Below are positions 9,964 to 64,000 of a stretch of DNA of 64,000 bases, in pieces. The notes under the pieces are model-generated. The model was not told where the DNA came from. It did not search any database and saw nothing but the letters and a program-made list of their open reading frames with translations. Numbering within the stretch: position 1 is the first letter of the stretch; every line of letters starts with the position of its first letter. The translations under genes and the position numbers were made by a program. Source of the stretch: Gemmatimonadales bacterium (lineage in GTDB: Bacteria; Gemmatimonadota; Gemmatimonadetes; Gemmatimonadales; GWC2-71-9); the NCBI GenBank assembly GCA_050733075.1, contig JBOHSD010000009.1, positions 1,189-65,188 on the forward strand. Reading direction: 5' to 3'.

Positions 9964-11502
9964 TCATGCAAATTCCCGTTTCCGATCCAGGCTCCGATAC
10001 TGAATCGCCTCAGTAACGTGGACCGTCGAGAGCTCGGCCGCTCCCGCCAGATCTGCGATGGTGCGCGCGATCTTGAGGACCCGATGATAGGCCCGGGCGG
10101 AGAGGCCCAGGCGCGAGACCGCCTGCCGGAGCACCGCCTCCACCGGCTCGGTGAGCCGGCAGTGCCGCCTGAGGTCGCGGGCGTTCATGTGGGCGTTGGC
10201 ATACACCCCGCGCTGATTCTGGAAGCGGGCGCGTTGCACGGCCCGGGCCCGCTCGACCCGGCTCCGGATGATGGCGCTGGATTCGCCGTATTGCTCGCCG
10301 ACCAGATCGCCATAGGCCACCGCCGGGACCTCGAGGTGGATGTCTATGCGGTCCAGCAGGGGCCCGGAAATTCGGGAGCGGTAGCGCTCGATGGCCAGCG
10401 AGCCGCAGTTGCAGGCATGTAGCGGACTACCGAAGTAGCCGCACGGACAGGGATTCATGGCTGCCGCCAGCATGAACCGCGCAGGGTAGGTCAGGCTCAT
10501 TGCCGCCCGGCTCAGCGTGACGACGCCATCCTCCAGGGGTTGACGCAATACCTCCAGCACGTTCCTTCGAAACTCGGGCAGCTCGTCGAGGAACAGCACT
10601 CCGCCGTGGGCCAGGCTCACTTCGCCGGGCCGGGGAGACGAACCTCCGCCGATCAGCCCGGCATCGCTGATGGTGTGATGCGGAGCCCGGAAGGGACGCT
10701 GGGTGAGCAGCGATTGGCCCGACGGAAGGATGCCGGCCACGCTGTGGATCTTGGTGGTTTCGAGCGCCTCCTCGAGGCTCATGGAAGGAAGGATGGTGGG
10801 AAGGCGCCGGGCCAGCATGGTCTTTCCGGCCCCCGGCGCCCCGATGAGCAGGATGTTATGGCCTCCGGCCGCGGCCACCTCCAGCGCGCGCTTGGCAGCG
10901 GCCTGGCTCCGTACATCGGCGAAATCGGTCTCGTCGCACCCCCGGTGGGCCATCAGGGCCGCCACATCGATGCGGGTGGGAGAGATGGGCGGATTGCTGG
11001 ACAGATGGGCGCAGGCCTGAAGCAGCGTGCGCGCTCCGCACACGTCCATGCCTTCGACCACTGACGCCTCCGGGAGATTGGCCTGGGGAAGCAGCACGCC
11101 CCGGTAGCCGGCAGTTCTTGCGGCGAGCGCCATGGACAGAGCGCCGCGTACCGGGCGCAAGTCGCCCTCCAGGCCGACCTCGCCGATTACCAGCTGATCC
11201 TGAAGCCGGTCTTCGGGGAGCTGGCCGCTGGCCACCAGGATGCCGAGCGCGATGGGCAGATCGAACGCGGAGCCGTCTTTCCGGATGTCTGCCGGAGCCA
11301 GGTTGACGGTGATTCTCCGCAGCGGAAAGGAGAACCCCGCGTTGGAAAGCGCGGCACTCACCCGCTCACGGCCTTCCTTCACCGCGCCTTGCGGCAGGCC
11401 GACCGTGGAGAACGACGGGAGGCCGTTGGTGATGTCTACCTCGACGTCTACCGGGTACGCGTCGATCCCGAGGACGGCGGCGGAGCGGATTCGGGCGAGC
11501 AT
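9964..11502 (-). CDS. comM: ComM/YifB Mg-chelatase-like AAA+ protein
   Basis: N-terminal Lon-like domain, Walker A LLIGAPGAGKTM, Walker B VLFLDELPEF, CPCGY zinc motif, C-terminal LSARAYHRVLKIARTIADL. Confidence 0.9.
   Translation of the reverse strand: MLARIRSAAVLGIDAYPVDVEVDITNGLPSFSTVGLPQGAVKEGRERVSAALSNAGFSFPLRRITVNLAPADIRKDGSAFDLPIALGILVASGQLPEDRLQDQLVIGEVGLEGDLRPVRGALSMALAARTAGYRGVLLPQANLPEASVVEGMDVCGARTLLQACAHLSSNPPISPTRIDVAALMAHRGCDETDFADVRSQAAAKRALEVAAAGGHNILLIGAPGAGKTMLARRLPTILPSMSLEEALETTKIHSVAGILPSGQSLLTQRPFRAPHHTISDAGLIGGGSSPRPGEVSLAHGGVLFLDELPEFRRNVLEVLRQPLEDGVVTLSRAAMSLTYPARFMLAAAMNPCPCGYFGSPLHACNCGSLAIERYRSRISGPLLDRIDIHLEVPAVAYGDLVGEQYGESSAIIRSRVERARAVQRARFQNQRGVYANAHMNARDLRRHCRLTEPVEAVLRQAVSRLGLSARAYHRVLKIARTIADLAGAAELSTVHVTEAIQYRSLDRKREFA
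10213..10449 (-). repeat. 237-bp segment of comM duplicated at 6136-6372
   Basis: Direct repeat in the same orientation. The single mismatch is C (10431) versus T (6354). Repeat starts are 4077 bp apart. Confidence 0.9.
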
Positions 11503-23450: not shown

Positions 23451-24677
23451 ATGCTGGAGGGAGCTGCCATCGCCCTCGACTCCATCAGGGCCAATAAAGT
23501 ACGCGCCGCACTCACCATTCTGGGCGTCGCCATCGGGGTAACGGTCGTCATCGCCATGGCCTCCGCCATCACCGGCATCAATCAGAGCGTTACCGGCATC
23601 CTCGAGTCTGCCGGTCCCAAGACCTTCTTCGTTCAACGCTACTTCTCCGGTGGCCTCGAGGTGTCCGACGGCTCCGATGAGATGTCGCCCTGGCGCCGGA
23701 TGCCCTGGCTCACGGTCGAGGAGGCGGAGCTCATTCGCCGGCTTCCGCTGGTGCGGGACGTGAACATCGGCGAGTACACCAGCGGTCCGGTGAGCTTCGA
23801 GGGTGTGGAGCTCAAGAGCGTGGCCATGGCCGGTATGAGCCCGAGCTGGAACCTGGTGAACGGCGGCGATATCCTTGCCGGGCGCAACTTCACACCCATG
23901 GAGTATGCCGCCGCCGCCAGCGTAGTCGTCATCAACGACAAGCTGGCGGAGTCGCTGTTCCCCGGCCGGGACGCGGTGGGAAAGAGGATCAAGATCTTCG
24001 GGCAGCCCTTTCAGGTGGTGGGGCTGCACGCCGAGGCCGCCTCGCTGTTCAGCAACGCCGACGAGCCGCGGCTGGCCCTCCCCCACAGCGCTTTTACCAA
24101 GGTCGCGGAGTGGTGGAAGGGGTGGCTGGAGATCGCGGTGCTGCCGGCCGAGACGGCCACGGTCCAGGATGCCCAGGACCAGGTGACCACGGCGCTCCGC
24201 ACCCATCGGGGGCTCCGGCCGGGGCAGCCGGACAACTTCGCCATCGTCACCCAGGACCGCGTGCTCGCCACCTTCAACAACATCACGGCTGCCTTCTTCG
24301 TGGTCATGATCGCGCTGTCGAGCGTGGGGCTCATGGTCGGGGGCGTCGGGGTGGTGGCGATCATGATGATCTCGGTTACCGAGCGCACCCGCGAGATCGG
24401 CGTCCGCAAGGCGCTGGGCGCCACTCGGCGCGAGATCATGTTTCAGTTCCTGGTCGAGGCGGCCACGTTAACGCTGGTAGGCTGCATGGCCGGCATGGCG
24501 CTGGGAGCGATCATCGCCTGGGCGGTGCGGTCCTTCACCCCCATTCCGGCCACGATACCGCTGCTCTCGGTGGTGGCCGCGGTGGTGGTCTCCAGCCTCA
24601 CCGGCGTGCTGTTCGGCCTCTACCCCGCCAGCAAGGCGTCACGCCTGGACCCGGTCGAGGCGCTGCGGTACGAGTAA
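23451..24677 (+). CDS. MacB/LolC-type ABC transporter permease, paralog P2 (type B)
   Basis: MLEGAAIALDSIRANKVRAAL..., MMISVTERTREIGVRKALGATRREI. GTG 23415 (GTGA overlap) is an alternative start. Confidence 0.85.
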   Translation: MLEGAAIALDSIRANKVRAALTILGVAIGVTVVIAMASAITGINQSVTGILESAGPKTFFVQRYFSGGLEVSDGSDEMSPWRRMPWLTVEEAELIRRLPLVRDVNIGEYTSGPVSFEGVELKSVAMAGMSPSWNLVNGGDILAGRNFTPMEYAAAASVVVINDKLAESLFPGRDAVGKRIKIFGQPFQVVGLHAEAASLFSNADEPRLALPHSAFTKVAEWWKGWLEIAVLPAETATVQDAQDQVTTALRTHRGLRPGQPDNFAIVTQDRVLATFNNITAAFFVVMIALSSVGLMVGGVGVVAIMMISVTERTREIGVRKALGATRREIMFQFLVEAATLTLVGCMAGMALGAIIAWAVRSFTPIPATIPLLSVVAAVVVSSLTGVLFGLYPASKASRLDPVEALRYE

Positions 24678-24680
24678 ATA

Positions 24681-24832
24681 GTGAACGGTAAACGGTGAAC
24701 GGTGAAGGGTGAAGGGTGAAGGGTGAAAGGTGAACTGGCCCATCCCGCCCAGCTTGTTCACCGTTCACCCTTCACCGTTTACCGTTCACCGTTCACCGTT
24801 TACCGTTTACCGTTTACCGTTTACCGTTCACG
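24681..24832. repeat. hairpin whose arms are tandem heptamer arrays (8 x GTGAACG-type / 11 x GTTCACC-type)
   Basis: Left arm 24681-24736, spacer 24737-24755, right arm 24756-24832. Starts 4 nt after the P2 stop and ends 15 nt before the P3 ATG. Confidence 0.9.
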
Positions 24833-24847
24833 CTTTTAGTATTACAA

Positions 24848-26092
24848 ATGCCCCTCACAGAAGCCCTGCGCCTCGCCATCCTGGCCATCTGGTCCAGCAA
24901 GCTGCGCTCGTTCTTCACCCTCCTCGGAATCATCGTGAGCGTCGCGTTCCTGGTTATGGTCGTCGCCATAATCCAGGGAATGAACGCGTACGTACGCGAG
25001 AACATCACCGGAGCGCTGATCGGGACCAACGCGTTTCAGGTCCGCCGGAGCCCGATCAGCGTAGGCCTGATGGACGACGAGGAGGTGCGGGCCATCAGCA
25101 AGCGGCCTCTCATCACGCTGCGGGACGCCGAGGTGGTTCGCCGCGCGGTGCCCGACGCGGAGGCGGTTGCTCTTCAGTCCGGCTGGCCCACTCCCGTCAG
25201 CCAGGTGTCCCACCGTAACCGGGTGGTGGAAAATACGGTCACCTTCGGTGTCACGCCTCCCTATCAGGTGGTGCAGGACTACCGGTTTGCGGCCGGCACC
25301 CCGCTCACCGAGCCCGACGTCAGCGGCCGGCGGAACGTGGTGGTGCTGGGGTACGATGTGGCGGAGCGGCTCTTCGACGATCATGCCGCGGCCGTGGGCC
25401 GCAAGGTCCGCGTGGCCGGCCGTGAGCTGCGGGTAAAGGGCGTGATCGCGAAAAAGGGGCGGGTGCTGGGCCAGTCGTTCGACACCTTCGTGCTCCTGCC
25501 GTTCACCACCTTCGAGTCGATGTATGGCCGGCGGAAAACCACCGTGGTATCGGTCAAGATGCCGACCGCGGCGGCCATCGACCCGGCCATGGCGCGGGCC
25601 GAAGAGGCGATGCGGCTGGCCCACCGGCTGAGGCCGGGGGAGCCGAACGATTTCACGGTGGACAAGGCGACGGCGCTGGTGGCCTTCTGGCGGAATCTGA
25701 CCCAGGTGCTGTTTACCGCCATTCCGGCGGTGGTCTGCATCGGGATCGTGGTAGGGGGCATCGTGATCATGAACATCATGCTGATGACGGTCAACGAGAG
25801 GGTGCACGAGATCGGCATCCGCAAAGCGGTAGGGGCGACCCGCGGCGATATCCGGCGCCAGTTCCTGGTGGAGGCGGTGACGCTGGCCTCGGCCGGAGGA
25901 GTGCTCGGGGTACTGCTGGGCTGGGGCGCAGCCACGCTGGTGGCCGGCGCGACGCCGCTGCCCGCCCGGGTCACACTGTGGTCGGTCGGCGCGGCGCTGG
26001 CCCTGGGAGCCGGTGCCGGCGTGATCTTCGGGGTCTACCCGGCGGCGAGGGCTGCGCGGCTGGATCCGATCACGGCCTTGCGAGCCGAGTAG
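24848..26092 (+). CDS. MacB/LolC-type ABC transporter permease, paralog P3 (type A)
   Basis: Closest to P1 (SKLRSFFTLLGIIVSVAFLVMVVAIIQGMN versus QKLKSFFSLLGVLIGVTFLIAVVSIVQGMN). IMLMTVNERVHEIGIRKAVGATRGDI. Confidence 0.85.
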   Translation: MPLTEALRLAILAIWSSKLRSFFTLLGIIVSVAFLVMVVAIIQGMNAYVRENITGALIGTNAFQVRRSPISVGLMDDEEVRAISKRPLITLRDAEVVRRAVPDAEAVALQSGWPTPVSQVSHRNRVVENTVTFGVTPPYQVVQDYRFAAGTPLTEPDVSGRRNVVVLGYDVAERLFDDHAAAVGRKVRVAGRELRVKGVIAKKGRVLGQSFDTFVLLPFTTFESMYGRRKTTVVSVKMPTAAAIDPAMARAEEAMRLAHRLRPGEPNDFTVDKATALVAFWRNLTQVLFTAIPAVVCIGIVVGGIVIMNIMLMTVNERVHEIGIRKAVGATRGDIRRQFLVEAVTLASAGGVLGVLLGWGAATLVAGATPLPARVTLWSVGAALALGAGAGVIFGVYPAARAARLDPITALRAE

Positions 26093-26100
26093 GACCGCGA

Positions 26101-27345
26101 GTGCGCTTCCGGATTCCCAACCTGGGGGAGGGCATCGCCATCGCGCTGGGCGCGGTGCGGACCAACAAGCTGCGCTCGGTGCTCACCATACTGGGCGTCG
26201 TCATCGGCGTCGCAACCGTGATGACGGTCGCCTCCATGGTGCAGGGCATCCGGTCCCAGATCTTCAACGCCATCGAGGTGGCCGGGCCCCAGGTCTTCTA
26301 CATACTCCGCTTCTTCACCCATACGCCGCTCGACCCGGACCGGCTCCCCTACGAGCTCCGCATCCGGCCTATACTAAGCCCGAGCGATGCCGATGCGGTT
26401 CGCGGCGTGCCCCAGATCGCCTACGCGCAGCTCTGGCTTCAAATCTTCGCCCGGCTGGAGAAATCGGGGGTGAGGACCCAGACCATGATTCTCTACGGCG
26501 GCGACCACCGCTTCATGGAAATCCTGGGCGGGACCCTGCTCCGGGGGCGGCTCTTCACTCGGGCCGAGCTCACCGGCGAGAGCGTCATCATCCTGGAGGA
26601 GCAGGCGGCCGACCGGCTCTTCGGCCAGCTGGAGCCGATCGGGCAGCTGGTGCGAGCCAATGGGCAGCCGCTCCGGGTAATCGGGATATACCAGAAGCCC
26701 ACCAACATCTTCGAGCCGCCGGGCCAACAGAACGCGGGGGCGGTACCGTTCCGCACGGCCCGGGAGAGGTTTCGCTACAACGAGAGCTATGACCTGTTCG
26801 TGGCGGTAAAGGCCCGGCCCGGGGTACCGATTTCTCTCGCCAAGGACGCAGTGACTTCCGCTCTCCGAAGAGCTCGCAACCTGCGCCCTGGAATGCCGAA
26901 CACGTTCGCTCTCGTCACCCAGGATCAAATCCTCGACGTGGTGGGGAATCTCACGGGATACTTCTTTCTGGCCATGGTGGCGCTGTCGAGCGTGGCACTC
27001 ATGGTCGGGGGGATCGGTGTCATGGCCATCATGATGGTATCGGTCACCGACCGAACCCGGGAGATCGGCATCCGCAAGGCTATCGGCGCCACCCGGGGTG
27101 AGATTCTCTGGCAGTTCCTCGTCGAGGCCGCGACTCTCACCCTCCTCGGCGGACTGATCGGAATCGTGGTTGGACTCGCGGCCGGGGAGATTCTCAAGTA
27201 CGTGATGGGGGTGGACGCCGCCGTCCCTCTTTGGAGCGCGGGGCTGGCCTGCGCCGTCAGCATCGCGATCGGACTGGTGTTCGGTCTGTATCCGGCCAAC
27301 CGCGCCGCGGGGATGGATCCGGTCGAGGCGCTACGACATGAGTGA
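26101..27345 (+). CDS. MacB/LolC-type ABC transporter permease, paralog P4 (type B)
   Basis: GTG 26101 start (VRFRIPNLGEGIAIALGAVRTNKLRS). Closest to P2. Ends ..DPVEALRHE followed by TGA TAA TAA. Confidence 0.8.
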   Translation: MRFRIPNLGEGIAIALGAVRTNKLRSVLTILGVVIGVATVMTVASMVQGIRSQIFNAIEVAGPQVFYILRFFTHTPLDPDRLPYELRIRPILSPSDADAVRGVPQIAYAQLWLQIFARLEKSGVRTQTMILYGGDHRFMEILGGTLLRGRLFTRAELTGESVIILEEQAADRLFGQLEPIGQLVRANGQPLRVIGIYQKPTNIFEPPGQQNAGAVPFRTARERFRYNESYDLFVAVKARPGVPISLAKDAVTSALRRARNLRPGMPNTFALVTQDQILDVVGNLTGYFFLAMVALSSVALMVGGIGVMAIMMVSVTDRTREIGIRKAIGATRGEILWQFLVEAATLTLLGGLIGIVVGLAAGEILKYVMGVDAAVPLWSAGLACAVSIAIGLVFGLYPANRAAGMDPVEALRHE

Positions 27346-27354
27346 TAATAAGAC

Positions 27355-27471
27355 GGTAAACGGTGAACGGTGAACGGTGAACAGTGAACGGGGTAGTGTG
27401 GTAGGACCCGTTTACCGTTCACCGTTTACCGTTTACCGTTTACCCTCACTTTTCACCGTTCACAGTTCACG
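27355..27471. repeat. hairpin of tandem heptamer arrays (5 x GGTGAAC-type / about 9 x GTTTACC-type)
   Basis: Left arm 27355-27389, spacer 27390-27409, right arm 27410-27471. Ends GTTCACGCTTT like the 24681-24832 copy, 14 nt before the next ATG. Confidence 0.9.
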
Positions 27472-27485
27472 CTTTATTTCGCGGC

Positions 27486-28202
27486 ATGCCCGTAGACATC
27501 CTTGCCATCGCCGCGCACCGCGACGACGTGGAGCTGACCTGTGCCGGTACCCTTCTCAAGGCGGCCGATGCCGGATACCGGACCGGCATCCTCGATCTCA
27601 CCGCCGGGGAGACCGGCACCCGGGGGAGTGCCGATCTCCGCGCCGAAGAGGCCGAGCGGGCGGCGAAGATTCTGGGGGTGAGCGAGCGGAGGAACGCCGG
27701 ACTGCCCGATGCCCATCTTCACAACTCAGATGAGGCCAGGCGGGCTATAGTGGCTCAGATTCGTCACTTCCTGCCTCGGGTCGTCATCCTTCCTTTCCCC
27801 GTGGGCCGCCACCCCGACCACCGGGTGGCTTCCGAGCTGGGGCGGGATGCCTGCTATCTGGCCGGACTCGCGCGCTACGATGCTGCCGGCGCTCCCCACC
27901 GTCCTCACAAGCTGCTCTACGCGCTCTCCTACCGGGAAGACCCCATCAAGCCCACGTTCGTCGTGGACATCGGCAAGCAGTTCGATCGAAAGCTCGCTGC
28001 AATCCGCTGCTACGCGAGCCAGTTTGACGGGGTCGAGGCAGCGGGTGAAATCTTTCCTGCGGGGCGGGATCTGTATTCGCTGGTCGAGACTCAGAACGCC
28101 CACTATGGCTCCCTGATCCGAGCCCCCTACGGCGAGCCGTTCTTTACTCACGAGACGATGGAGGTCGAGGATGTGATGAAACTGGGTGTTCAGAGTATGT
28201 AG
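27486..28202 (+). CDS. PIG-L family deacetylase, BshB1-like
   Basis: ILAIAAHRDDVELTCAGT, TRGSADLRAEEAERAAKILGV, HPDHRV motifs, as in LmbE/BshB1 enzymes. Confidence 0.75.
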   Translation: MPVDILAIAAHRDDVELTCAGTLLKAADAGYRTGILDLTAGETGTRGSADLRAEEAERAAKILGVSERRNAGLPDAHLHNSDEARRAIVAQIRHFLPRVVILPFPVGRHPDHRVASELGRDACYLAGLARYDAAGAPHRPHKLLYALSYREDPIKPTFVVDIGKQFDRKLAAIRCYASQFDGVEAAGEIFPAGRDLYSLVETQNAHYGSLIRAPYGEPFFTHETMEVEDVMKLGVQSM

Positions 28203-28244
28203 ACCACGCTGTCATCCCAAGCGTTCGCCGCTATCTTCCCATCT

Positions 28245-29501
28245 ATGCGTCCGCCCGTCTACCTCGACTATGCCGCCACCACTCCGGTCCGTCCGGAGGT
28301 GCTGGAGGCCATGCTGCCGTACCTGACCGCCCAGACCTTTGGGAACCCCTCCAGCGCCCACCGCTTCGGCCGGGCCGCGCGGGCGGGTGTCGAACAGGCA
28401 CGGCGGCAGGTGGCGGAGGCGGTCGGGGCCGAGCCCAACCAGGTGATCTTCACCTCCGGCGGGACCGAAGCCGACAACCTGGGCATCGTAGGCGCGTCGC
28501 TCGCCGCCCGGGAACGAGGCGCGGCCATGTGCGCGGCCGTCTCGGCGATCGAGCACAAGGCAGTGCTCGCGGCCGCTCACGCGGTATGCCATCTCGGTGG
28601 CCGCGAGGTGCTGCTGCCGGTGGACTCCGGAGGCCAGCTCGATCTCGACGCCCTCGACCGCGCGCTCGGGGAGAGCCCGGCCGTCGTCTCGGTGATGTGG
28701 GTCAACAACGAGGTGGGAGTAGTGCAATCGGTATCCGAAATCGCCGGGCGCTGCCGGGATGCCGGAGTGATCTTTCACACCGACGCGGTGCAGGCCCTGG
28801 GCAAAGTGCCGGTGTCAATGACCGAGCTGCCCTGCACTCTGCTCACCATCTCCGGCCACAAGATCGGGGCGCCCAAGGGCATCGGGGCCTTGATCGTGCG
28901 CGACCGCAAGGCAGTCGAGGCCATCATCCATGGCGGCGGCCAGCAGTTCGGCATCCGGCCCGGAACCGAGAACGTGGCCGGCGCCGTGGCGTTGGGCCGC
29001 GCCGCCCAGCTCGCCGCTGCGGAACAGGCCTCACTGGCGGAGCGCCTTTGCGCCCTGCGCAACGAGCTGGCCGCCAGCCTGAAGGCCTCGGTCGCAGATC
29101 TGGTGGTCAACGCCGAGGATAGTCCACGCGCGCCCCATCTTTTGAGCGTCGCGGTCACCGGCGCCGACAGCGAGGCGCTGCTGATGCACCTCGATCTCGC
29201 CGGCGTCGCCGCGTCGAGCGGTTCGGCCTGCTCCAGCGGGGCGGTGGAGCCCTCTCACGTCCTCATCGCTATGGGAGTCCCCCGCGACCTGGCCCTCGGC
29301 GCCGTTCGCTTCAGCTTCGGGCGAGAGAGCACGAGGGAGGACGTCGAGCGCGCCGCTGAGGTGATGCCGGCCGTAGTCTCCAAAGTACGGAAGCTGGCGG
29401 GGGTGCTCGGACGGGCGGACGGGCGGACGGGCGGTTGGGCGGACGGCGGACGAGGTCAGACCATCAAGGCACCGCAGGGTACCGCCGAGGGCAGCGGATG
29501 A
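28245..29501 (+). CDS. cysteine desulfurase (NifS/YrvO-like, class V aminotransferase)
   Basis: PLP-lysine ISGHKIGAPKG, active-site SSGSACSSG. The last 35 codons or so run through an octamer repeat. ATGA overlap with mnmA. Confidence 0.85.
   Translation: MRPPVYLDYAATTPVRPEVLEAMLPYLTAQTFGNPSSAHRFGRAARAGVEQARRQVAEAVGAEPNQVIFTSGGTEADNLGIVGASLAARERGAAMCAAVSAIEHKAVLAAAHAVCHLGGREVLLPVDSGGQLDLDALDRALGESPAVVSVMWVNNEVGVVQSVSEIAGRCRDAGVIFHTDAVQALGKVPVSMTELPCTLLTISGHKIGAPKGIGALIVRDRKAVEAIIHGGGQQFGIRPGTENVAGAVALGRAAQLAAAEQASLAERLCALRNELAASLKASVADLVVNAEDSPRAPHLLSVAVTGADSEALLMHLDLAGVAASSGSACSSGAVEPSHVLIAMGVPRDLALGAVRFSFGRESTREDVERAAEVMPAVVSKVRKLAGVLGRADGRTGGWADGGRGQTIKAPQGTAEGSG
29409..29454 (+). repeat. 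tandem 8-mer array GGACGGGC x3 plus 3 degenerate units, inside the desulfurase 3' tail
   Basis: GGACGGGC GGACGGGC GGACGGGC GGTTGGGC GGACGGC GGACGAG. Translated as GRADGRTGGWADGGR. Confidence 0.85.
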
Positions 29502-33993: not shown

Positions 33994-34028
33994 GGGAGCT
34001 GGGAGCTGGGAGCTAGGAGCTAGGAGCT
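33994..34028. repeat. tandem heptamer array GGGAGCT x3 plus AGGAGCT x2
   Basis: Fills the pgsA-stop/cinA-start junction exactly. It begins at the nucleotide next to the cinA ATG and overlaps the last pgsA codons and the TAG (34020-34022). Confidence 0.85.
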
Positions 34029-34673: not shown

Positions 34674-35348
34674 CTACCCCAACATCTTGACGACGTTCTT
34701 GCTGATGGCCTTCAGGGTATCGAATACGCCCTCGCCGGTCAGGGCGACGGCCTCGAAGTAGGGAGCCCGCTCGATCCACTGGCCGTCTTCCTGGCTGACC
34801 AGAAACTCCGAGTCGTGGTAGGGGTCGCGGGCGACCCGCTGCCTGGACGGCTCGGTGACCGGCCAGCCGGGATTGAGCGCGGCCTGCAGCTCCGGGATGG
34901 GAGCGGCGTTGGGCAGATCGCGCTTGTTGTACTGGATGGCGAATGGGATCTTGGTTACGTCGTAACCGTGCTGGGTCATGTTCTCGTAGAGGTTCTGCAT
35001 GGCCTCGATGTTCGCGTCCATCCGCTCGATCTGACTGTCGGCCACGAAGACCACGCCGTCCACCCCCTTGAGGATCAGCTTTCGGGAGGCATTATAGTAG
35101 ACCTGCCCGGGCACGGTGTAGAGGTGGAACTTCACCTTGAAGCCGCGGATGGTGCCCAGGTCGACCGGAAGAAAATCGAAGAACAGGGTGCGCTCGGTCT
35201 CGGTTGCCAGGGAGATCATCTTCCCGCGGGCGGCGGGCGCCACTTTGTTGTAGACGTGCTCGAGGTTGGTGGTCTTCCCGCCCAGGCCGGGCCCGTAGTA
35301 CACCAGCTTGCAGTTGATCTCGCGGGAGGCGTAGTTGATCATCGACAT
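34674..35348 (-). CDS. mglA: MglA-type Ras-like small GTPase (with internal insertion)
   Basis: [19 protein letters not shown]-loop, LYTVPGQ switch II, YNKRD G4. About 29 extra residues lie between ALNP and PYFEAVA. Confidence 0.85.
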
Positions 35349-35360
35349 GGCTGGCTTCCC

Positions 35361-35852
35361 TCAGGCCCCGAAGAGTTTGTCGATTTCGTCCTCCGTCTCG
35401 CCCAGGAACTCGGACTCGACTCCCGGCGCATTGGTCCCGTCGCGGTTGAACATTTCCGTGAACACCTGATTCAACTGGACCACTGCCGCCTTCACCCGCA
35501 GCTTTACCAGCCCCAGCGTCGTCCGGTTGTCGAACAGCACCACCAGAATGACGCGCCGCGCGATATCCGCGAGGTACATCGACTCCCGTTCGCCCTGGTG
35601 AAAGAGCGCTCCGAACTCCGACTCGCCCAGCATGCGCGCGAGCTGATCGTTGGCGCTGAAGTCCGCAGCCGTCAGGGAGGCGAACGCGGTGGGATCGAAC
35701 GCCGGGGCCTCCCCGACGGTTGCCACCAGCTGGCCCGTGCGGTCGACGATCAGGGCCGTCCGGGAGTTGGACTCACCGAGAAAACCGCTCAGAATAGCCT
35801 GAATCCGGCGAGAATCGTCCTCCCCGAACGACCAGCTCGACGCACCGCTCAT
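35361..35852 (-). CDS. mglB: Roadblock/LC7 protein, MglB-like GAP
   Basis: Start at MSGASSWSF (ATG 35852-35850). LIVDRTGQLVATVG ... VILVVLFD pattern. Immediately upstream of mglA. Confidence 0.75.
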   Translation of the reverse strand: MSGASSWSFGEDDSRRIQAILSGFLGESNSRTALIVDRTGQLVATVGEAPAFDPTAFASLTAADFSANDQLARMLGESEFGALFHQGERESMYLADIARRVILVVLFDNRTTLGLVKLRVKAAVVQLNQVFTEMFNRDGTNAPGVESEFLGETEDEIDKLFGA

Positions 35853-37056: not shown

Positions 37057-37127
37057 GGTCGAGAAAGTAGGAGGTGGGTGAGGACATCGCAACGGTTTAA
37101 GAGTCTTGACCTCTCGACTCTCGACTC
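37057..37127. repeat. imperfect hairpin with heptamer right arm (CTCTCGA x2.5)
   Basis: GGTCGAGAAAGTAGGAGGTGGGTGAGG ... CTCTCGACTCTCGACTC. Occupies the whole dnaX-stop/ybaB-start gap and overlaps the dnaX TGA (37126-37128). Confidence 0.6.
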
Positions 37128-38790
37128 AATCCACTATCTCTAAATCTAACGCATCCGCGGCCGTGTCGAGAGCCGGGTCCCGGGAGCGGAACTCTCGCAA
37201 GCGCTCGGCCTTGAGGCTCGATTCGGAGAGCCGGCGAGGCCTCGTGCCGGGGTCGGTACGGCTAACCGCGGCTGCGGTCACGCGCAGGCGTACCGGCTGC
37301 CCCAGGCTCCGGCTCAGAACCTCCTCGACCTTGGCGGCTTCCTGGTGCAACCGGTCGGCAAAGAGCTGGTTGGGCTCGGCCATGGCCACCGTCAGCCAGG
37401 GCAGCTCCAGGGCGGCGGGCTCGCTTGCGGCGAGGGCCTCCCCCAGGAACCGGCTGTGGGCTCTCATGGCGGCAACCACGGCGGGCCAGGTCGCTCGAAC
37501 CGCCTCGAGGGACGGTGAGGCAGCGGGGCCGGGGGGCAGCGGGGCAGTGTGGTTGGGGGGCGGCGGAGCAGCGGCTTCTTGCCGGGCCTGATTCCGTGCC
37601 TCGCTATCCCTCTGCCCCTCTGCCCCCCTGCCCCCCTGCCCCGTTGCCCCGCTTTCCCGCTTACCCGCTTTCAGCACCTCCCGCAGATCGACGATACGGT
37701 CCAGCATTGCCCAGCGCAGGAGCAGGGTCTCGACCACCAGGCGGGGATTGACGCTCCGCCTGATTCCAAGCTCGTTGTCCGCCAACAGCCGAAGCATCCG
37801 AAGCACGTCGCCGGGCTCCAACCGCCCCTGGTAACTCTCCAGGGTAACCCGCAGGGCCTCGGTCATGCCCTCGGGCCGGGCCCCCATCTGGAGCATCAGC
37901 AGCCCCCGCAGCGTGTCGGCCGCGCCGGCCATGAACTCGGCCAGGTCCACTCCGGCATCCATCAGCCGGTCCACCAGCGGGAAAACGGCGGCCGGCCGCC
38001 GCTCGGCCACCAGCTGGAGCACCTCGGCAAACAGCTCATCGTCCACCAGCCCGAGCACCTCCCGTACCCGGCCGGCCGTGATCGCGCCCTCGCCGAAGCT
38101 GAGGCACTGGTCCAGAACCGAGAGCGCGTCTCGCATGCCGCCATCAGCGTGGCGGGCGATGAGCGTGAGGGCGTCGTCGTCGGCTGCGATCCCTTCGGCC
38201 TGGAGAACCTGGCGAAGGCGGTCGCGGATGGCCGTAGGGCCTATGCGGCGGAAGTCGAAGCGCTGGAGGCGCGACATGACCGGGGCCGCCGCGGCCGCAA
38301 TCTTGTGGGGCTCGGTGGTGGCAAACACGAAGACCACCCCCGGCGGCGGCTCCTCCAGAATCTTGAGCAACGCGTTCCAGGCCTCGCGGGTCAGCATGTG
38401 GGCTTCGTCCACGATGTAGATCTTGTGATGCCCCTCTTGCGACGCCGCATACATGGCCCGCTCGCGCAGGTCCCGCGCGTCGTCTACCCCGCGGTTGCTG
38501 GCGGCATCGATCTCGACCACGTCCAGATTGGCCGACCCGTTCCAGATCCGCATGCAGTTCTCGCACTCGCCGCAGGGGTCTCCCGAAGACTCGCGGCGGG
38601 GACAGTTGAGGGCCATGGCGAGAATACGGGCGGCGGTGGTCTTGCCGACACCGCGGGGGCCGGTGAGGAGGTAACCGTGCCCGACCCGTTCCCTGGCGAC
38701 CGCACCGCGCAGGACGGCCGCGACGTGATCCTGGACCAGGAGATCGGCGAATCGCTTGGGACGGTATCGGCGGGCGAGGGCGAGGGTCAT
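37126..38790 (-). CDS. dnaX: DNA polymerase III subunit gamma/tau
   Basis: GPRGVGKTT Walker A, zinc module CGECENC, DEAHML. The low-complexity linker contains repeat-derived sequence. Confidence 0.9.
   Translation of the reverse strand: MTLALARRYRPKRFADLLVQDHVAAVLRGAVARERVGHGYLLTGPRGVGKTTAARILAMALNCPRRESSGDPCGECENCMRIWNGSANLDVVEIDAASNRGVDDARDLRERAMYAASQEGHHKIYIVDEAHMLTREAWNALLKILEEPPPGVVFVFATTEPHKIAAAAAPVMSRLQRFDFRRIGPTAIRDRLRQVLQAEGIAADDDALTLIARHADGGMRDALSVLDQCLSFGEGAITAGRVREVLGLVDDELFAEVLQLVAERRPAAVFPLVDRLMDAGVDLAEFMAGAADTLRGLLMLQMGARPEGMTEALRVTLESYQGRLEPGDVLRMLRLLADNELGIRRSVNPRLVVETLLLRWAMLDRIVDLREVLKAGKRESGATGQGGRGAEGQRDSEARNQARQEAAAPPPPNHTAPLPPGPAASPSLEAVRATWPAVVAAMRAHSRFLGEALAASEPAALELPWLTVAMAEPNQLFADRLHQEAAKVEEVLSRSLGQPVRLRVTAAAVSRTDPGTRPRRLSESSLKAERLREFRSRDPALDTAADALDLEIVD
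37514..37669. repeat. inverted G-rich/C-rich short-period repeat arrays inside dnaX coding sequence
   Basis: Left arm is GGTGAGGCAGCGGGGCCGGGGGGCAGCGGGGCAG... Right arm is eight 8-mers: CCCTCTGC x2, CCCCCTGC x2, CCCGTTGC, CCCGCTTT, CCCGCTTA, CCCGCTTT. Translated as KAGKRESGATGQGGRGAEGQRD...PPPPNHTAPLPPGPAASP. Confidence 0.8.
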
Positions 38791-38802: not shown

Positions 38803-38913
38803 AAAAAAAGTGCCTCAGGCACCCCGAAGCGACACCGGGCATCGCTTAGCGCTGCTACCGGCGAGGTCCTGACGCGGTTCACGCGCCGGCGCCCTTCGGA
38901 CCTGAGGCAAGTC
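38803..38913 (-). ncRNA. ffs: signal recognition particle RNA (small bacterial 4.5S type)
   Basis: The minus strand reads GCCUCAGGUCCGAAGG...GUCAGGACCUCGCCGGUAGCAGCGCUAAG...CUUCGGGGUGCCUGAGGC followed by U7. GUCAGG..AGCAGC matches the domain IV core of E. coli 4.5S (GUCAGGUCCGGAAGGAAGCAGC). The terminal helix GCCUCAGG/CCUGAGGC closes it. It lies directly upstream of dnaX, a conserved synteny. Confidence 0.7.
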
Positions 38914-46403: not shown

Positions 46404-46411
46404 ACCGGCGA

Positions 46412-46521
46412 GGTGGAGAGAACGGTTTAGGTGGAGAGAACGGTCTAGGTGGCTAGAGAACGGTTTAGGTGAAGAGAACGGTTTAGGTGGAGAGAACAGT
46501 CGAGGTGGGGAGAACAGTGGC
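46412..46521. repeat. six tandem copies of an 18-nt unit (GGTGGAGAGAACGGTTTA)
   Basis: Units at 46412-46429, 46430-46447, 46448-46467 (20 nt), 46468-46485, 46486-46503 and 46504-46521, degenerating toward the last. Confidence 0.9.
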
Positions 46522-52205: not shown

Positions 52206-52288
52206 CCTCCCACGAAGCCATAGGTGATGGGGTACGCCTCTCCCGCCAGTGTAAGGATAGCGCGAAGGGAGAGGATCGTCAGGTGCAG

Positions 52289-52316
52289 GCGGTACGGCGG
52301 TACGGCGGTACCGCCC
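52289..52316. repeat. tandem 8-mer array GGCGGTAC x3 ending in the palindrome GGCGGTACCGCC
   Basis: Lies 2 nt downstream of the DUF1206 gene stop (52318-52320, minus strand). Confidence 0.8.
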
Positions 52317-59015: not shown

Positions 59016-59102
59016 GGGGGCGGTAAGGAGGTAGGTCCCTCGTTCGCTTACGCTCTCTCGGGATGAGGTATCTCTCCGTTACCGCCTTACCGCCTTACCG
59101 CC
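59016..59102. repeat. hairpin with 8-mer repeat arm (TTACCGCC x3)
   Basis: GGGGGCGGTAAGGAGGTAGG (59016-59035) is complementary in type to CCGTTACCGCCTTACCGCCTTACCGCC (59076-59102). The right arm overlaps the last codons and the TAA of the gamma-CA gene. Confidence 0.75.
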
Positions 59103-61772: not shown

Positions 61773-61933
61773 CGGGGCGGCGTGTAGGCGGGTAGGTAGG
61801 TAGGCGGGTAAGTGGGTCAAGGCAGCAGAATCTGACCGGGATCTGTCAAACCTGAGGGGGGAACCTGCCCGAATACCCGCCCGCGCGGCTACCCAGTTAC
61901 CCGTTTACCCCCCTGTTACCCCCTGCCCGCCCC
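61773..61933. repeat. imperfect hairpin of G-rich (GGTA/GGGTAAG) and C-rich (TTACCC) short repeats
   Basis: CGGGGCGGCGTGTAGGCGGGTAGGTAGGTAGGCGGGTAAGTGGGT ... ACCCGCCCGCGCGGCTACCCAGTTACCCGTTTACCCCCCTGTTACCCCCTGCCCGCCCC. Sits in the divergent intergenic region. Confidence 0.7.
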
Positions 61934-61973: not shown

Positions 61974-62447
61974 GTGCCATCACCCGGAGAGCTTGTGGTC
62001 CCCTATCACACGATCGCGTTCAGTCAGCAGAAGCTGAGGGCCGCCCTGCGCCGCGCCGAAGGCCAGGACCCGGCGTTCGCGTACGGTTTCGTGGTTCACT
62101 CCCGGCGTCACCACGAGCGACCAGCCCTGGGCCTCATCACCCTGCACGGCGAAAGCCTGGCGTTCAACGAGCGGCTGCTCAAGTCGGTCGACGGGCTCCC
62201 TCTCTGGCTGTTCGGCCATGCCCGCATCACGCTCATGCCCGGGACCACCATCTCCCCGGCCGAAGGAGGCCGGACCAAGCAGGCCGACCGGCCGCTGGCC
62301 TCGATGCTCATGCACATCGCCACCTTCGATACCACCACCGGCGTCACCCAGCATCTGGTGCAGGTCGAGGCCCTGGTCAAGGCCGAGAGCCTGGTCCAGC
62401 CGCTCCTCATTCTCACCCCCTCGCGCCCGGCGGCATGGCCGATGTAG
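61974..62447 (+). CDS. hypothetical protein
   Basis: 157-aa ORF (GTG start) with clear GC3 bias on this strand. No family recognised. Confidence 0.55.
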   Translation: MPSPGELVVPYHTIAFSQQKLRAALRRAEGQDPAFAYGFVVHSRRHHERPALGLITLHGESLAFNERLLKSVDGLPLWLFGHARITLMPGTTISPAEGGRTKQADRPLASMLMHIATFDTTTGVTQHLVQVEALVKAESLVQPLLILTPSRPAAWPM

Positions 62448-62454
62448 GGAAGAA

Positions 62455-62579
62455 GGTGAACGGTAAGCGGTGAGCGGTGAGTGGGAACCCACAAAACAAC
62501 GACCCTCCGATGTCCTTGGACGCCGGAGGGTCTCATATTTCGGAGCGACCCGCTTACCGCTCACCGCTCACCGCTCACC
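62455..62579. repeat. hairpin of heptamer arrays (GGTGAAC GGTAAGC GGTGAGC GGTGAGT / GCTTACC GCTCACC x3) with a nested 9-bp stem
   Basis: Left arm 62455-62482, right arm 62552-62579. Inner hairpin GACCCTCCG (62501-62509) / CGGAGGGTC (62524-62532). The right arm overlaps the stop and last codons of the GWxTD gene. Confidence 0.85.
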
Positions 62580-64000
62580 TTCCTCCTCGTCCTCCACCAC
62601 CTGAAACTCGCGGGTTCGCCGGTCCTTCCGGCCGTCGGCGTCCATCACCGTCAGCGCTAGTACGTAGCTGCCGGGCTTCAGGCGGTCCAGCTTGAGACTG
62701 CGGTGAGTCGAGACCCTGGGCCTGGTAGCCTGTTGCTCGAACTCGAGCCGGATGGCGGCCCCGCCACCCCCGAAGATCTTCCTCAAGAGCCCGCCGCCGG
62801 ATCCCTTCTTGCGCACCTCGAGCTTCACCGTGTAAGGGGTGGGTCGGAGGCCCTCGATCTCGTAGTAAAGCTCCATCTGCTCACTCCGGCGGTAGGTGCG
62901 GAGCGGGTTCAGGAGCACAGTGTCTTCCGACGTACGCGGCCAGATCAGATTGGCATTGCGGGCGCCGAGCACCAGGTCGCTGAGGCCCAGCTCACTCGAG
63001 GCGGTCGGCCCGACCCGCACACTGTCGCGTGGGAGGGTGACCCCGGCATCGTCACCCTGCTGGATGGCCAGACGGTACCGGAGCATGCCCGGTGGTACGG
63101 TCCTGCCCACCCTTCCAACCAGGTGCTCGTGAGCCGGGACCCGCTCCGGGGCCACGAAATGCCTGGTCGTGTCCACTGAAGCCACCACCTGATCGTTGCT
63201 GTCCGTGGCCACGAAGCGCAGCCGGACGGTATAGAGGAACCCCCGGGTGACGGTGACCGGCTCCAGGCTGGAACCCGAGATGGCGTAGGCGATCTGGACC
63301 TGGTGCCCGGCGGAGTCGCTTCCCACTGCAAGCACCTCGGATGTGGCCTTGAGCTCGCTCGCGAAGCGCAGCTCGTAGCTGTCGCTGGTGGTGCCCAGCG
63401 CAATGCTCTCCTGCCCGACCCGCCGCTCCTGGCTCTGGTAGCGCCCGGTGCTGATCCGCCCTACTCCCTGGAGCCGCCGATAGATGGGCGAAAGCTGCTG
63501 CCGGGACAGCATCAGCTGCTCGGCCATGGCATTGTCAGCCGCCCAGTCGGCCTGCTGCAACTTCACGGCATCGCTGAAGCCGAGAACATCGAAAAGGCTC
63601 TCTACCAGCTTGAAATCCTGCACGTCTTCACGGGCTATGAAATGGAAGATGAGATCTCCATCGGTTCTGCTATAGCGCCAGGATTCGTTCGGCTCGAGCC
63701 CCGGGGCGGCGTAGGCCGCCCGGGTGGACGGCTCGCCGTGCCGGATGTAGATCACGCCGCGGTCATCGAAATCCCGGCTGCCGGAGCGATACCGCTCGAC
63801 GATATCGTAGTGCCTGTTGTTGGAGGTCAGCTGAAAGTTTTTGCGGGCGTAGAAGAGCCGCCGGTAGTGCTCCCGCAACCGCTCACCGTCGGTCCTGAGC
63901 TCGATACGATCGCGCTGGCCCCAGAACTTGCGGAGGTGCCCGGCCCGCCGATTCCCCTGCTGCTGATCGAACTCGGCAAGCACGCTGTCCGGCGCTATAG
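62568..64000 (-). CDS. GWxTD domain-containing protein (N-terminus beyond window end)
   Basis: The frame stays open to the window edge. RDFDDRGVIYIRHGEP and ESWRY are GWxTD-domain-like. The C-terminal half is beta-rich. Confidence 0.7.
   Translation of the reverse strand, partial: IAPDSVLAEFDQQQGNRRAGHLRKFWGQRDRIELRTDGERLREHYRRLFYARKNFQLTSNNRHYDIVERYRSGSRDFDDRGVIYIRHGEPSTRAAYAAPGLEPNESWRYSRTDGDLIFHFIAREDVQDFKLVESLFDVLGFSDAVKLQQADWAADNAMAEQLMLSRQQLSPIYRRLQGVGRISTGRYQSQERRVGQESIALGTTSDSYELRFASELKATSEVLAVGSDSAGHQVQIAYAISGSSLEPVTVTRGFLYTVRLRFVATDSNDQVVASVDTTRHFVAPERVPAHEHLVGRVGRTVPPGMLRYRLAIQQGDDAGVTLPRDSVRVGPTASSELGLSDLVLGARNANLIWPRTSEDTVLLNPLRTYRRSEQMELYYEIEGLRPTPYTVKLEVRKKGSGGGLLRKIFGGGGAAIRLEFEQQATRPRVSTHRSLKLDRLKPGSYVLALTVMDADGRKDRRTREFQVVEDEEEGER

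Follow-up and report, generated by a model that had tools for sequence, protein, structure and literature searches.

To our knowledge, prokaryotic genomes have been known since 2007 to contain more heptamer repeats than expected, and this excess is still unexplained. In Xanthomonas, about 185 arrays of the heptamer GGGAATC are found per genome, with one dominant unit (Rehm et al. 2015, PLoS One, PMC4692102). These arrays are 89-93% intergenic and lie on average 28 nt past the upstream open reading frame (ORF), and each genome holds 70-75 convergent opposite-strand pairs with the potential to form a stem-loop, G-rich arm first (PMC4692102). The repeats were treated in that study mainly as G-quadruplex-forming (PMC4692102), and the arrays vary in copy number and are used as markers for multiple-locus variable-number tandem-repeat analysis (PMC8002079, PMC6459536). 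Here we describe long hairpins with arms made of tandem heptamers in a 64,000-nt stretch from the genome of a soil Gemmatimonadales bacterium (contig JBOHSD010000009.1; this whole stretch is called the window, and coordinates are counted from its first letter). Three strong copies, E1 to E3, lie directly behind stop codons, and the element is real, recurrent and lineage-wide in Gemmatimonadales.

Other short extragenic repeats are relevant for comparison. In E. coli, repetitive extragenic palindromic (REP) sequences reportedly stabilise upstream mRNA and attenuate transcription, and those within about 15 nt of a stop codon are said to stall ribosomes. Cyanobacterial STRR sequences are also said to be one-armed heptamer arrays. 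The TAACTGA repeats of Beggiatoaceae are one-armed heptamer arrays located just upstream of start codons (MacGregor 2015, PMC4679880). For extragenic palindromes, REP sequences, bacterial interspersed mosaic elements (BIMEs) and REPINs form the reference system (Bertels and Rainey 2011, PMC3116915).

E1 (24681-24832) is the archetype. It occupies the spacer between two co-directional FtsX/MacB permease genes, with a stop codon ending at 24677 and the following start, an ATG, at 24848 (gene positions in the window were taken from gene calls on identical public contigs). The left, purine-rich arm (24680-24735) begins 3 nt past the TAA (24675-24677) of FtsX/MacB paralog 2 and is composed of eight heptamers: AGTGAAC, GGTAAAC, GGTGAAC, three copies of GGTGAAG, GGTGAAA and GGTGAAC. 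It is followed by a 20-nt centre, TGGCCCATCCCGCCCAGCTT (24736-24755), which differs among orthologs, and by a right, pyrimidine-rich arm (24756-24832) of 11 heptamers of the types GTTCACC, GTTTACC and CTTCACC, the last being GTTCACG. This right end reads ...GTTCACG-CTTTTAGTATT, and a T-rich tail on the plus strand, CTTTTAGTATTACAA (24833-24847), is a candidate U tract. Tandem Repeats Finder (TRF) delimited a left array of period 7 with 7.9 copies (24681-24735) and a complementary right array with 10.9 copies (24756-24831). As an inverted repeat, the arms extend over 24674-24735 and 24756-24817, each 62 nt long and 89% complementary, with 20 nt between them. The predicted RNA fold reaches -108.1 kcal/mol against a shuffle mean of -48.5 (z -12.6), a value equalled by none of 200 shuffles. 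The 8 plus 11 complementary heptamers proposed in an initial annotation, made from the letters of the window, were thus confirmed by the tandem arrays, the inverted-repeat arms and the fold.

E2 (27353-27476) has 5.6 copies on the left and 9.1 on the right, and folds at -73.8 kcal/mol (z -8.3). It lies in the spacer from the fourth FtsX gene (stop at 27345) to bshB1 (ATG at 27486). The left arm (27353-27392) begins 8 nt past the TGA (27343-27345) of FtsX paralog 4 and holds five to six heptamers (CGGTAAA, three CGGTGAA, CAGTGAA). The right arm (27408-27472) holds about nine, ending in GTTCACG; the element ends ...GTTCACG-CTTTATTT, and its plus-strand tail, TTTATTTCGCGGC (27473-27485), abuts the bshB1 ATG. 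E3 (62448-62587) has 3.9 and 4.3 copies and folds at -94 kcal/mol (z -10.5). Located between convergent genes, its left arm (62448-62485; GGAAGAA, GGTGAAC, GGTAAGC, GGTGAGC, GGTGAGT) begins 1 nt past the TAG of a 150-aa gene (61995-62447), and its right arm (62549-62587; CCGCTTA, three CCGCTCA, CCTTCCTCC) overlaps the stop (62568) of the convergent minus-strand gene. Between the arms, a GC-rich hairpin, GACCCTCCG...CGGAGGGTC (62500-62530), has T-rich runs on both strands and resembles a common bidirectional terminator that the two arrays enclose. The centres of the three strong copies are unrelated to one another. With distances of 3, 8 and 1 nt, the proximity to stop codons noted in the initial annotation is borne out at all three.

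Recurrence was assayed with a two-unit probe, GGTRAACGGTRAAC. Allowing at most 2 mismatches, it matched 35 times in the 64-kb window, against 0.72 expected. Outside E1-E3, matches were found only at 144, 30175 and 61896, the last of which belongs to a weaker locus at 61773-61933. The same architecture is also present outside the window. A set of 500 kb, comprising the window and 80 bshB1 loci from metagenomes, was chosen by protein and not by repeat; BshB1 homologs at 87-89% identity carry the label Gemmatimonadales. In this set, 66, 15, 13 and 5 arrays were found for periods 7, 6, 8 and 9, against 8, 3, 0 and 0, in the order given, in the shuffled set. The excess is specific to heptamers, and the claim of a recurrent architecture is supported. 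The median distance of the arrays is 6 nt to a gene 3' end but 57 nt to a 5' end (outside the window, genes were called crudely, from GC3). This agrees with the statement of the initial annotation that most copies abut or overlap a stop codon.

A scan for three GGTRAAC units, with one genome per species, gave at least 119 loci. Among the matches listed, about one third are in Gemmatimonadales or Gemmatimonadetes metagenome-assembled genomes (MAGs) and the rest are scattered over many phyla. The claim that the purine-rich arm always comes first holds for 3/3 pairs of the window and for 16/16 Gemmatimonadales MAG pairs among the matches listed, i.e. 19/19, and purine-first pairs again dominate the 500-kb set, with three exceptions. 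In other phyla, most arrays among the matches listed are one-armed, and the polarity of the pairs is split 7 to 4. GGTRAAC arrays are also present in 27 IMG/VR viral contigs, some with an array every 0.6-1 kb and with pairs that are often pyrimidine-first; polarity is thus a property of a lineage or family rather than a universal physical constraint. One such contig, L207 (IMGVR_UViG_3300039309_000135; L-numbers designate the loci or contigs compared), contains 18 arrays in 11 kb. The dense viral contigs (L207, L203, L223 and L205/L210/L213) each carry several unit types, among them GGAAAAC, CTGGGAA and GGTAAAC.

An artefact of short-read metagenome assembly could in principle create repeats of this kind. 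The Logan contig SRR27067773_15455 starts at about 27415, inside the right arm of E2, indicating that assemblers break at such palindromes, and the exact unit numbers of E1 and E2 depend on short reads. However, over the elements they share, three assemblies (the window, the contig of GCA_975305025.1 and that of Logan) match base for base, at 100% identity and without gaps. From its coordinates, the NCBI contig CDHZYM010000054.1 should end near window position 10326, so that the window seems to belong to a third record of this genome. Dozens of independent MAGs also carry elements, some of them on contigs of 0.9-1.7 Mb whose names are of the long-read style (CAWIXT010000006.1, JBAOHR010000007.1), and so do orthologous sites in independent metagenomes. 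We therefore consider an artefact very improbable, and this concern of the initial annotation can be set aside.

A regulatory role through G-quadruplexes has been suggested for the heptamers GGGAATC of Xanthomonas and GGGGAYT of Nostoc, but deserves next to no credence here. The architecture and position are Xanthomonas-like, and E1 has three GGG runs, but no motif of four G3+ runs with N1-7 spacing was found on either strand of the elements numbered E1-E4 and E6, and the dominant unit GGTGAAC has only GG. This reading is contradicted by the sequence.

The stability of the elements was followed in syntenic relatives with 89-91% BshB1 identity, in which the same two spacers were compared. At the spacer of E1 (site A, FtsX2 to FtsX3), the left and right arms have 8 and 11 units in the window, 4 and 4 in L231, and 3 and 4 in L232. 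At the spacer of E2 (site B, FtsX4 to bshB1), the numbers are 5 and 9 in the window, 4 and 4 in L230, and 4 and 7 in L231. Unit numbers thus differ between orthologs (3-8 on the left, 4-11 on the right), in keeping with the suggestion that the unequal arms arise by slippage. What surrounds the units is more constant. The termini AGCGTGAAC...GTTCACGC are common to all copies of the relatives at sites A and B, the left termini of the window having diverged, and the element ends in orthologous copies can be summarised as AGCGTGAAC on the left and GTTCACGCTTTAT on the right. The centres differ, and the tail CTTTAT(T/C) is kept in all copies at both sites; at E2 and its orthologs it is followed by 6-8 nt and the ATG. 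In total, the T-rich tail (CUUUUAGUAUU in E1, CUUUAUUU in E2) is conserved in 6/6 orthologous or paralogous copies. The earlier statement that there is no U tract thus has to be corrected, as T-rich tails follow the right arms of E1, E2 and their orthologs. In a more distant clade with RTGCGGA units at three spacers of one contig, a four-ortholog alignment shows nearly invariant arms around a variable 55-nt centre. Conserved arms with variable centres near terminators have also been seen in a survey of inverted repeats (PMC13155455).

Variation of this sort could be a functionless mutational by-product, in which replication stalls at a terminator hairpin, and slippage and template switching add mirrored heptamers. 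The order of unit variants in E1 is mirrored in both arms, with GGTAAAC expanded in one and GGTGAAG in the other, as expected of independent slippage on an ancestral palindrome. The arrays of E3 flank an apparently ordinary terminator, unit number varies among orthologs, and in L155 a one-unit collapsed remnant is all that is left. Layered arrays exist as well: L119 (284-421) and L072 (5652-5779) contain nested, onion-like elements with outer GGTCGTA arms, inner GTGAAAG arms and a central hairpin. Nevertheless, such a process would leave unexplained the unit shared by unrelated loci of one genome, the near-constant purine-first polarity, and the termini and tail conserved across orthologs and paralogous sites, so that we find it quite improbable as a full account. 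Addition at 3' ends of double-strand breaks, considered as another source of the arrays, fits poorly with intact central terminators and was rejected.

The choice of unit was then compared within and between genomes. The mean unit distance is 1.77 within contigs and 2.68 between contigs, a difference matched by 0/2000 permutations. The window itself has three GGTRAAC/GGTRAGC loci in 64 kb. In L234 and L235 (89% relative), GGTRAGA units are found at site B and again at a second spacer, and termini and units are shared at 2-3 sites per contig. The FtsX genes preceding E1 and E2 are only 40% identical, so that these elements are not relics of gene duplication. As judged from these comparisons, the unit is genome-specific and common to several loci of one genome, rather than locus-specific as had been stated. 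Some process acting between loci, either spread or conversion, must therefore operate.

Selfish or neutral mobile palindromes of the REPIN or MITE (miniature inverted-repeat transposable element) type would provide such a process. Whole elements would be copied by a trans-acting enzyme, for example a RAYT or IS200-like Y1 transposase, and copies would persist where they are harmless, the gap between stop codon and promoter being the only unconstrained DNA. The genome-specific units fit this proposal. One MAG also has three contigs with common arms and an identical or near-identical core hairpin, the mix of spacer contexts equals the background, the same arrays occur in the viral contigs, and layers of different units are nested in L119 and L072. 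Presence at the orthologous spacer varies among relatives, and in L141 the right arm alone stands beside a different upstream gene, indicating a synteny break inside the element. On the other hand, no transposase-like gene lies beside any copy of the window, and no RAYT (Y1 transposase) gene is among its called genes. The centres of its strong copies are unrelated, orthologous copies have outlasted about 10% of protein divergence with their termini kept, and no clear target-site duplication was found, a possible TGA/GTGA repeat being the only candidate. We regard this explanation as unlikely, though worth weighing.

The candidate duplication comes from one comparison. At the FtsX-bshB1 junction, L146 is empty, with a 4-nt ATGA stop/start overlap. 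The filled junctions of L147 and L142 show TGA on the left and GTGA on the right, with the downstream start changed from ATG to GTG, and L147 has a new GGGGAGG Shine-Dalgarno sequence. The TGA/GTGA pair may represent a duplication of 3-4 nt at the point of insertion or origin.

A shared heptamer could also mean that the arrays are a multivalent platform for a sequence-specific protein with which they co-evolve, either a binder of single-stranded RNA or DNA (Csp-, S1- or KH-type) or a nucleoid or topoisomerase factor that recognises duplex DNA. The unit is indeed common to unrelated loci and replaced in concert at an orthologous site elsewhere, the arms are much better conserved than the centre, and there is a strong preference for period 7. 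One heptamer per genome at more than 150 loci is likewise known from Xanthomonas and Beggiatoaceae, for which RNA-binding proteins have been proposed (PMC4692102, PMC4679880). However, no candidate protein was found, units vary inside one array (G/A, C/G), the base-paired inverted pairs of Gemmatimonadales would hide a single-stranded site, and a structural hairpin predicts conserved arms equally well. A protein platform is improbable in our view.

It is likewise a long shot that the heptamer is a genome-wide "code" written or maintained by a dedicated trans-acting system. Candidates for such a system would be an enzyme that adds or copies repeats at hairpin-stalled 3' ends, or a co-evolving heptamer-binding protein. 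The idea would explain the unit shared by unrelated loci and its concerted switch at orthologous sites, as well as the lineage-fixed polarity and the period of 7 across many phyla and phage-like contigs.

Altogether, we interpret E1-E3 and the eroded copies as REP-like palindromes of Gemmatimonadales, i.e. hairpins that would serve as terminators, insulators or 3'-protective structures, vary by slippage and are homogenised genome-wide. Our confidence in this explanation is moderate, with the case for it and the case against it about evenly balanced. In this lineage, the layout runs from a stop codon through (A)AGCGTGAAC-(GGTRAAC)n, a short centre of the form G...C that varies, and (GTTYACC)m-GTTCACGC to TTTAT. 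Transcribed at the 3' end of the upstream gene, the RNA is predicted to fold into a hairpin of 40-60 bp that starts a few bases past the stop and has a short U-rich tail behind it. This hairpin would end or attenuate transcription in either direction and block 3' exonucleases, and would in this way shield the upstream unit from the promoter that follows, which at E1 and E2 would be an apparent -10 box for a leaderless gene right behind the right arm. The arms would gain and lose units through slipped-strand mispairing, while copy-and-paste spread or gene conversion would keep the unit uniform within a genome as it drifts between genomes; both steps are partly shown by the comparisons above.

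Termination or 3' protection, which the initial annotation had listed among possible roles, is in our judgement the most plausible function, and this is something we infer. It is supported by the position directly past stops, by the conserved T-rich tail, by the terminator-like hairpin nested in E3 and by the conservation of arms around variable centres. Scans of the window showed no enrichment of canonical terminators (10 against 8.4 expected; 7 against 9.8), which also supports a terminator or insulator role for the elements. Two more observations bear on this role. Whichever strand is read, the purine-rich arm, which is entered first, has a stop codon in each reading frame within 25 nt, and the exiting arm has none. 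Moreover, the hairpin starts less than 15 nt past a stop codon, the geometry at which REPs of E. coli are said to stall ribosomes.

The starts of the downstream genes agree with such a role at E1 and E2. Neither gene has a Shine-Dalgarno sequence, and TAGTAT or TTTATT stands 5-7 nt ahead of the ATG. In the E1 tail, TAGTAT lies 5 nt ahead of the ATG at 24848 and looks like the -10 box of a leaderless gene; upstream of the bshB1 start at 27486, TTTATT is a near-match to TAnnnT. With such starts behind E1 and E2, the hairpin would separate a transcription unit from the next promoter. A TAnnnT motif 5-7 nt ahead of the ATG with no Shine-Dalgarno sequence was found for 6/44 called genes of the window (starts at 24848, 28245, 45985 on the minus strand, 49745 on the minus strand, 49991 and 61698 on the minus strand), against about 1.5/44 expected by chance, a rough estimate. 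This suggests that leaderless mRNAs are frequent in the Gemmatimonadales genome of the window. The metagenome bshB1 orthologs show the same pattern of TATNTT, 6-8 nt and ATG. The right arm of E1 and E2 could possibly also be read as an array of -35 boxes (TTCACC/TTTACC, with 16-18 nt to the -10-like tail); this reading was not adopted generally, because the units of other lineages (TCCGCAT, CTCTTAC) are not -35-like.

Several observations weigh against the terminator and insulator role. The stems are far longer than termination requires, the U tail has only 3-4 U and is conserved in the sub-lineage of the window only, and a T-rich flank is lacking from many copies in Gemmatimonadales (as judged by eye; an automated test for A/T-tract flanks on the widest minimum-free-energy pair of 12 elements gave poor boundaries and was discarded). 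Array-bearing spacers are tandem, convergent and divergent in 43, 15 and 8 cases, which does not differ from all spacers (346, 93 and 75). Among 14 elements between co-directional genes, the sense RNA folds better in 8 and the antisense RNA in 6, giving no sign of selection at the RNA level. The downstream gene of other clades is preceded by a Shine-Dalgarno sequence, and co-transcription is probable there. Moreover, many relatives have an FtsX-bshB1 spacer of 4-10 nt, or genes that overlap, so that the element is dispensable there.

In addition to the strong copies, weaker loci were inspected, since "at least 8 loci" had been counted in the window. The total is 3 solid and 2-3 weak loci, the longer count having included low-complexity coding regions and a chance match. 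At 59016-59102 (minus strand), the 8-mer unit (TTACCGCC)x3 has a partner of about 10 bp (z -1.7). In minus-strand orientation, (GGCGGTAA)x3 runs over the stop codon of a hexapeptide-transferase gene (59087) and pairs with CCTCCTTACCGCC, upstream of a class II ribonucleotide reductase. At 61773-61933, in a divergent spacer, GGTAGGC/GGGTAAG units face GTTACCC/GTTTACC in an eroded member whose fold beats shuffles only marginally (z -2.2). A one-armed array, (GGCGGTAC)x3 followed by CGCC, lies at 52286-52315 directly past the stop of a DUF1206 gene (52318), with a partner of only 4 nt.

Four other candidates were rejected. The fold at 37057-37127 is at chance level (z -0.4), 37514-37669 codes for the Gly/Pro-rich linker of DnaX tau, and 29405-29454 codes for the C-terminal tail of an aminotransferase, the last two being low-complexity coding sequence. 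The fourth, at 33994-34028, has a single arm and an unrelated unit, TGGGAGC. This (TGGGAGC)x5 array fills the whole 26-nt minus-strand spacer from the stop of a CDP-alcohol phosphatidyltransferase gene to the start of cinA, ends in the palindrome GGAGCTCC, and precedes a cinA start with no recognisable Shine-Dalgarno sequence.

Other features of the window were recorded alongside. An 18-nt tandem array, AGGTGGAGAGAACGGTTT in 5.7 copies (46411-46515), has a unit that includes the heptamer-family core GAACGGT and lies in the long spacer that separates two minus-strand genes, one of 163 aa (stop 46548) and one for pyruvate kinase (start 45985). A second family of spacer repeats in the lineage is a palindrome around GTCATCCCGAGCG or CGCTCGGGATGAC-like sequence, found in the window at about 28205-28244, in L003 (3507-3706), L190, L231 (5718-5753), L232 (4839-5000) and L234 (5718-5824); in L003 it occupies the "loop" of a heptamer element. 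The bacterial small signal recognition particle (SRP) RNA (RF00169, 44.6 bits) is encoded at 38809-38908 on the minus strand, directly upstream of dnaX. At 34674-35852 (minus strand), a Ras/Arf-like small GTPase gene and a Roadblock/LC7 gene form an MglA/MglB-type pair, next to which lies a second gene of Roadblock/LC7 size.

What is new here is the paired heptamer hairpin lacking G-quadruplex capacity, in Gemmatimonadales; paired convergent arrays as such were already known from Xanthomonas. The elements offer a tractable comparative system, with orthologs that have fixed termini, variable unit number and a concerted change of unit per genome, and this concerted genome-wide choice of heptamer is their most interesting aspect. 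The phylum appears to use leaderless genes and few canonical terminators. If the elements were its main terminators or insulators, this would matter for the annotation of transcription units in Gemmatimonadota. Their practical weight is that assemblies break at them. The mechanism is only moderately supported, and the function is one that we infer from the arrangement of the sequence.

The elements can finally be compared with known systems. No Rfam family was found for them at gathering or E-value threshold, with only sub-threshold generic miRNA-precursor hits; the SRP RNA was the sole match at threshold in the window. A plasmid BLAST of the archetype matched only flanking ABC-permease coding sequence, and our literature search found no paper on such repeats in Gemmatimonadetes. 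A CRISPR array was rejected, since the units are 7 nt long, contiguous and in inverted blocks, against repeats of 23-50 nt with unique spacers. The elements resemble MITEs in being small, non-coding and multi-copy, with inverted terminal sequences; unlike MITEs, they show no clear target-site duplication, no parent transposon was found for them, and their "terminal inverted repeats" are microsatellites of variable length. The period of 7 is shared with the STRR and Beggiatoaceae arrays, in which one or a few units recur over more than 100 intergenic loci of a genome and the phylogeny is scattered, but which are mostly direct and not inverted.

Similarity to intrinsic terminators lies in the hairpin right past the stop and in the A-rich left and T-rich right flanks at E1, E2 and orthologs. 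However, the outer stem is 40-62 bp long instead of 5-14, the loop is 14-64 nt instead of 3-8, only 3-4 U follow, and the arms are internally repetitive and variable in length. A scan with a terminator consensus did not call the elements, a U tract is missing at the outer stem of E3, and only the inner hairpin of E3 has the stem and loop size of an intrinsic terminator.

With REPs and REPINs, the elements have in common that they are extragenic hairpin palindromes past stop codons, apparently genome-specific and multi-copy, with arms better conserved than the spacer (in the four-ortholog alignment and at sites A and B). In contrast, REP arms are single units of 20-40 nt and not tandem arrays, and the GTAG/CGTC tag is absent: the termini of the GGTGAAC elements are AGCGTGAAC and GTTCACGCT, and GTAG is confined to different units, for example the GGTCGTA arrays of L072 and L119.

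The likeness to the Xanthomonas pairs extends further, so that an architecture the initial annotation did not recognise had in fact been reported, as convergent paired heptamer arrays downstream of ORFs (PMC4692102). In both cases, tandem heptamers (3.9-10.9 copies in E1-E3 by TRF) are arranged convergently with the G-rich arm first, in intergenic positions that lie nearer to where the upstream ORF ends than to where the following one starts. The differences are that the unit here has no G3 tract, which makes G-quadruplex formation impossible, that arms reach 8-18 units with stems of 40-60 bp, and that there are conserved termini, a T-rich tail and nested layers of different units, in another phylum, Gemmatimonadota. 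That elements lacking G-quadruplex capacity nevertheless keep the architecture, polarity and position of the Xanthomonas pairs points to the hairpin, or its generator, as the common denominator.

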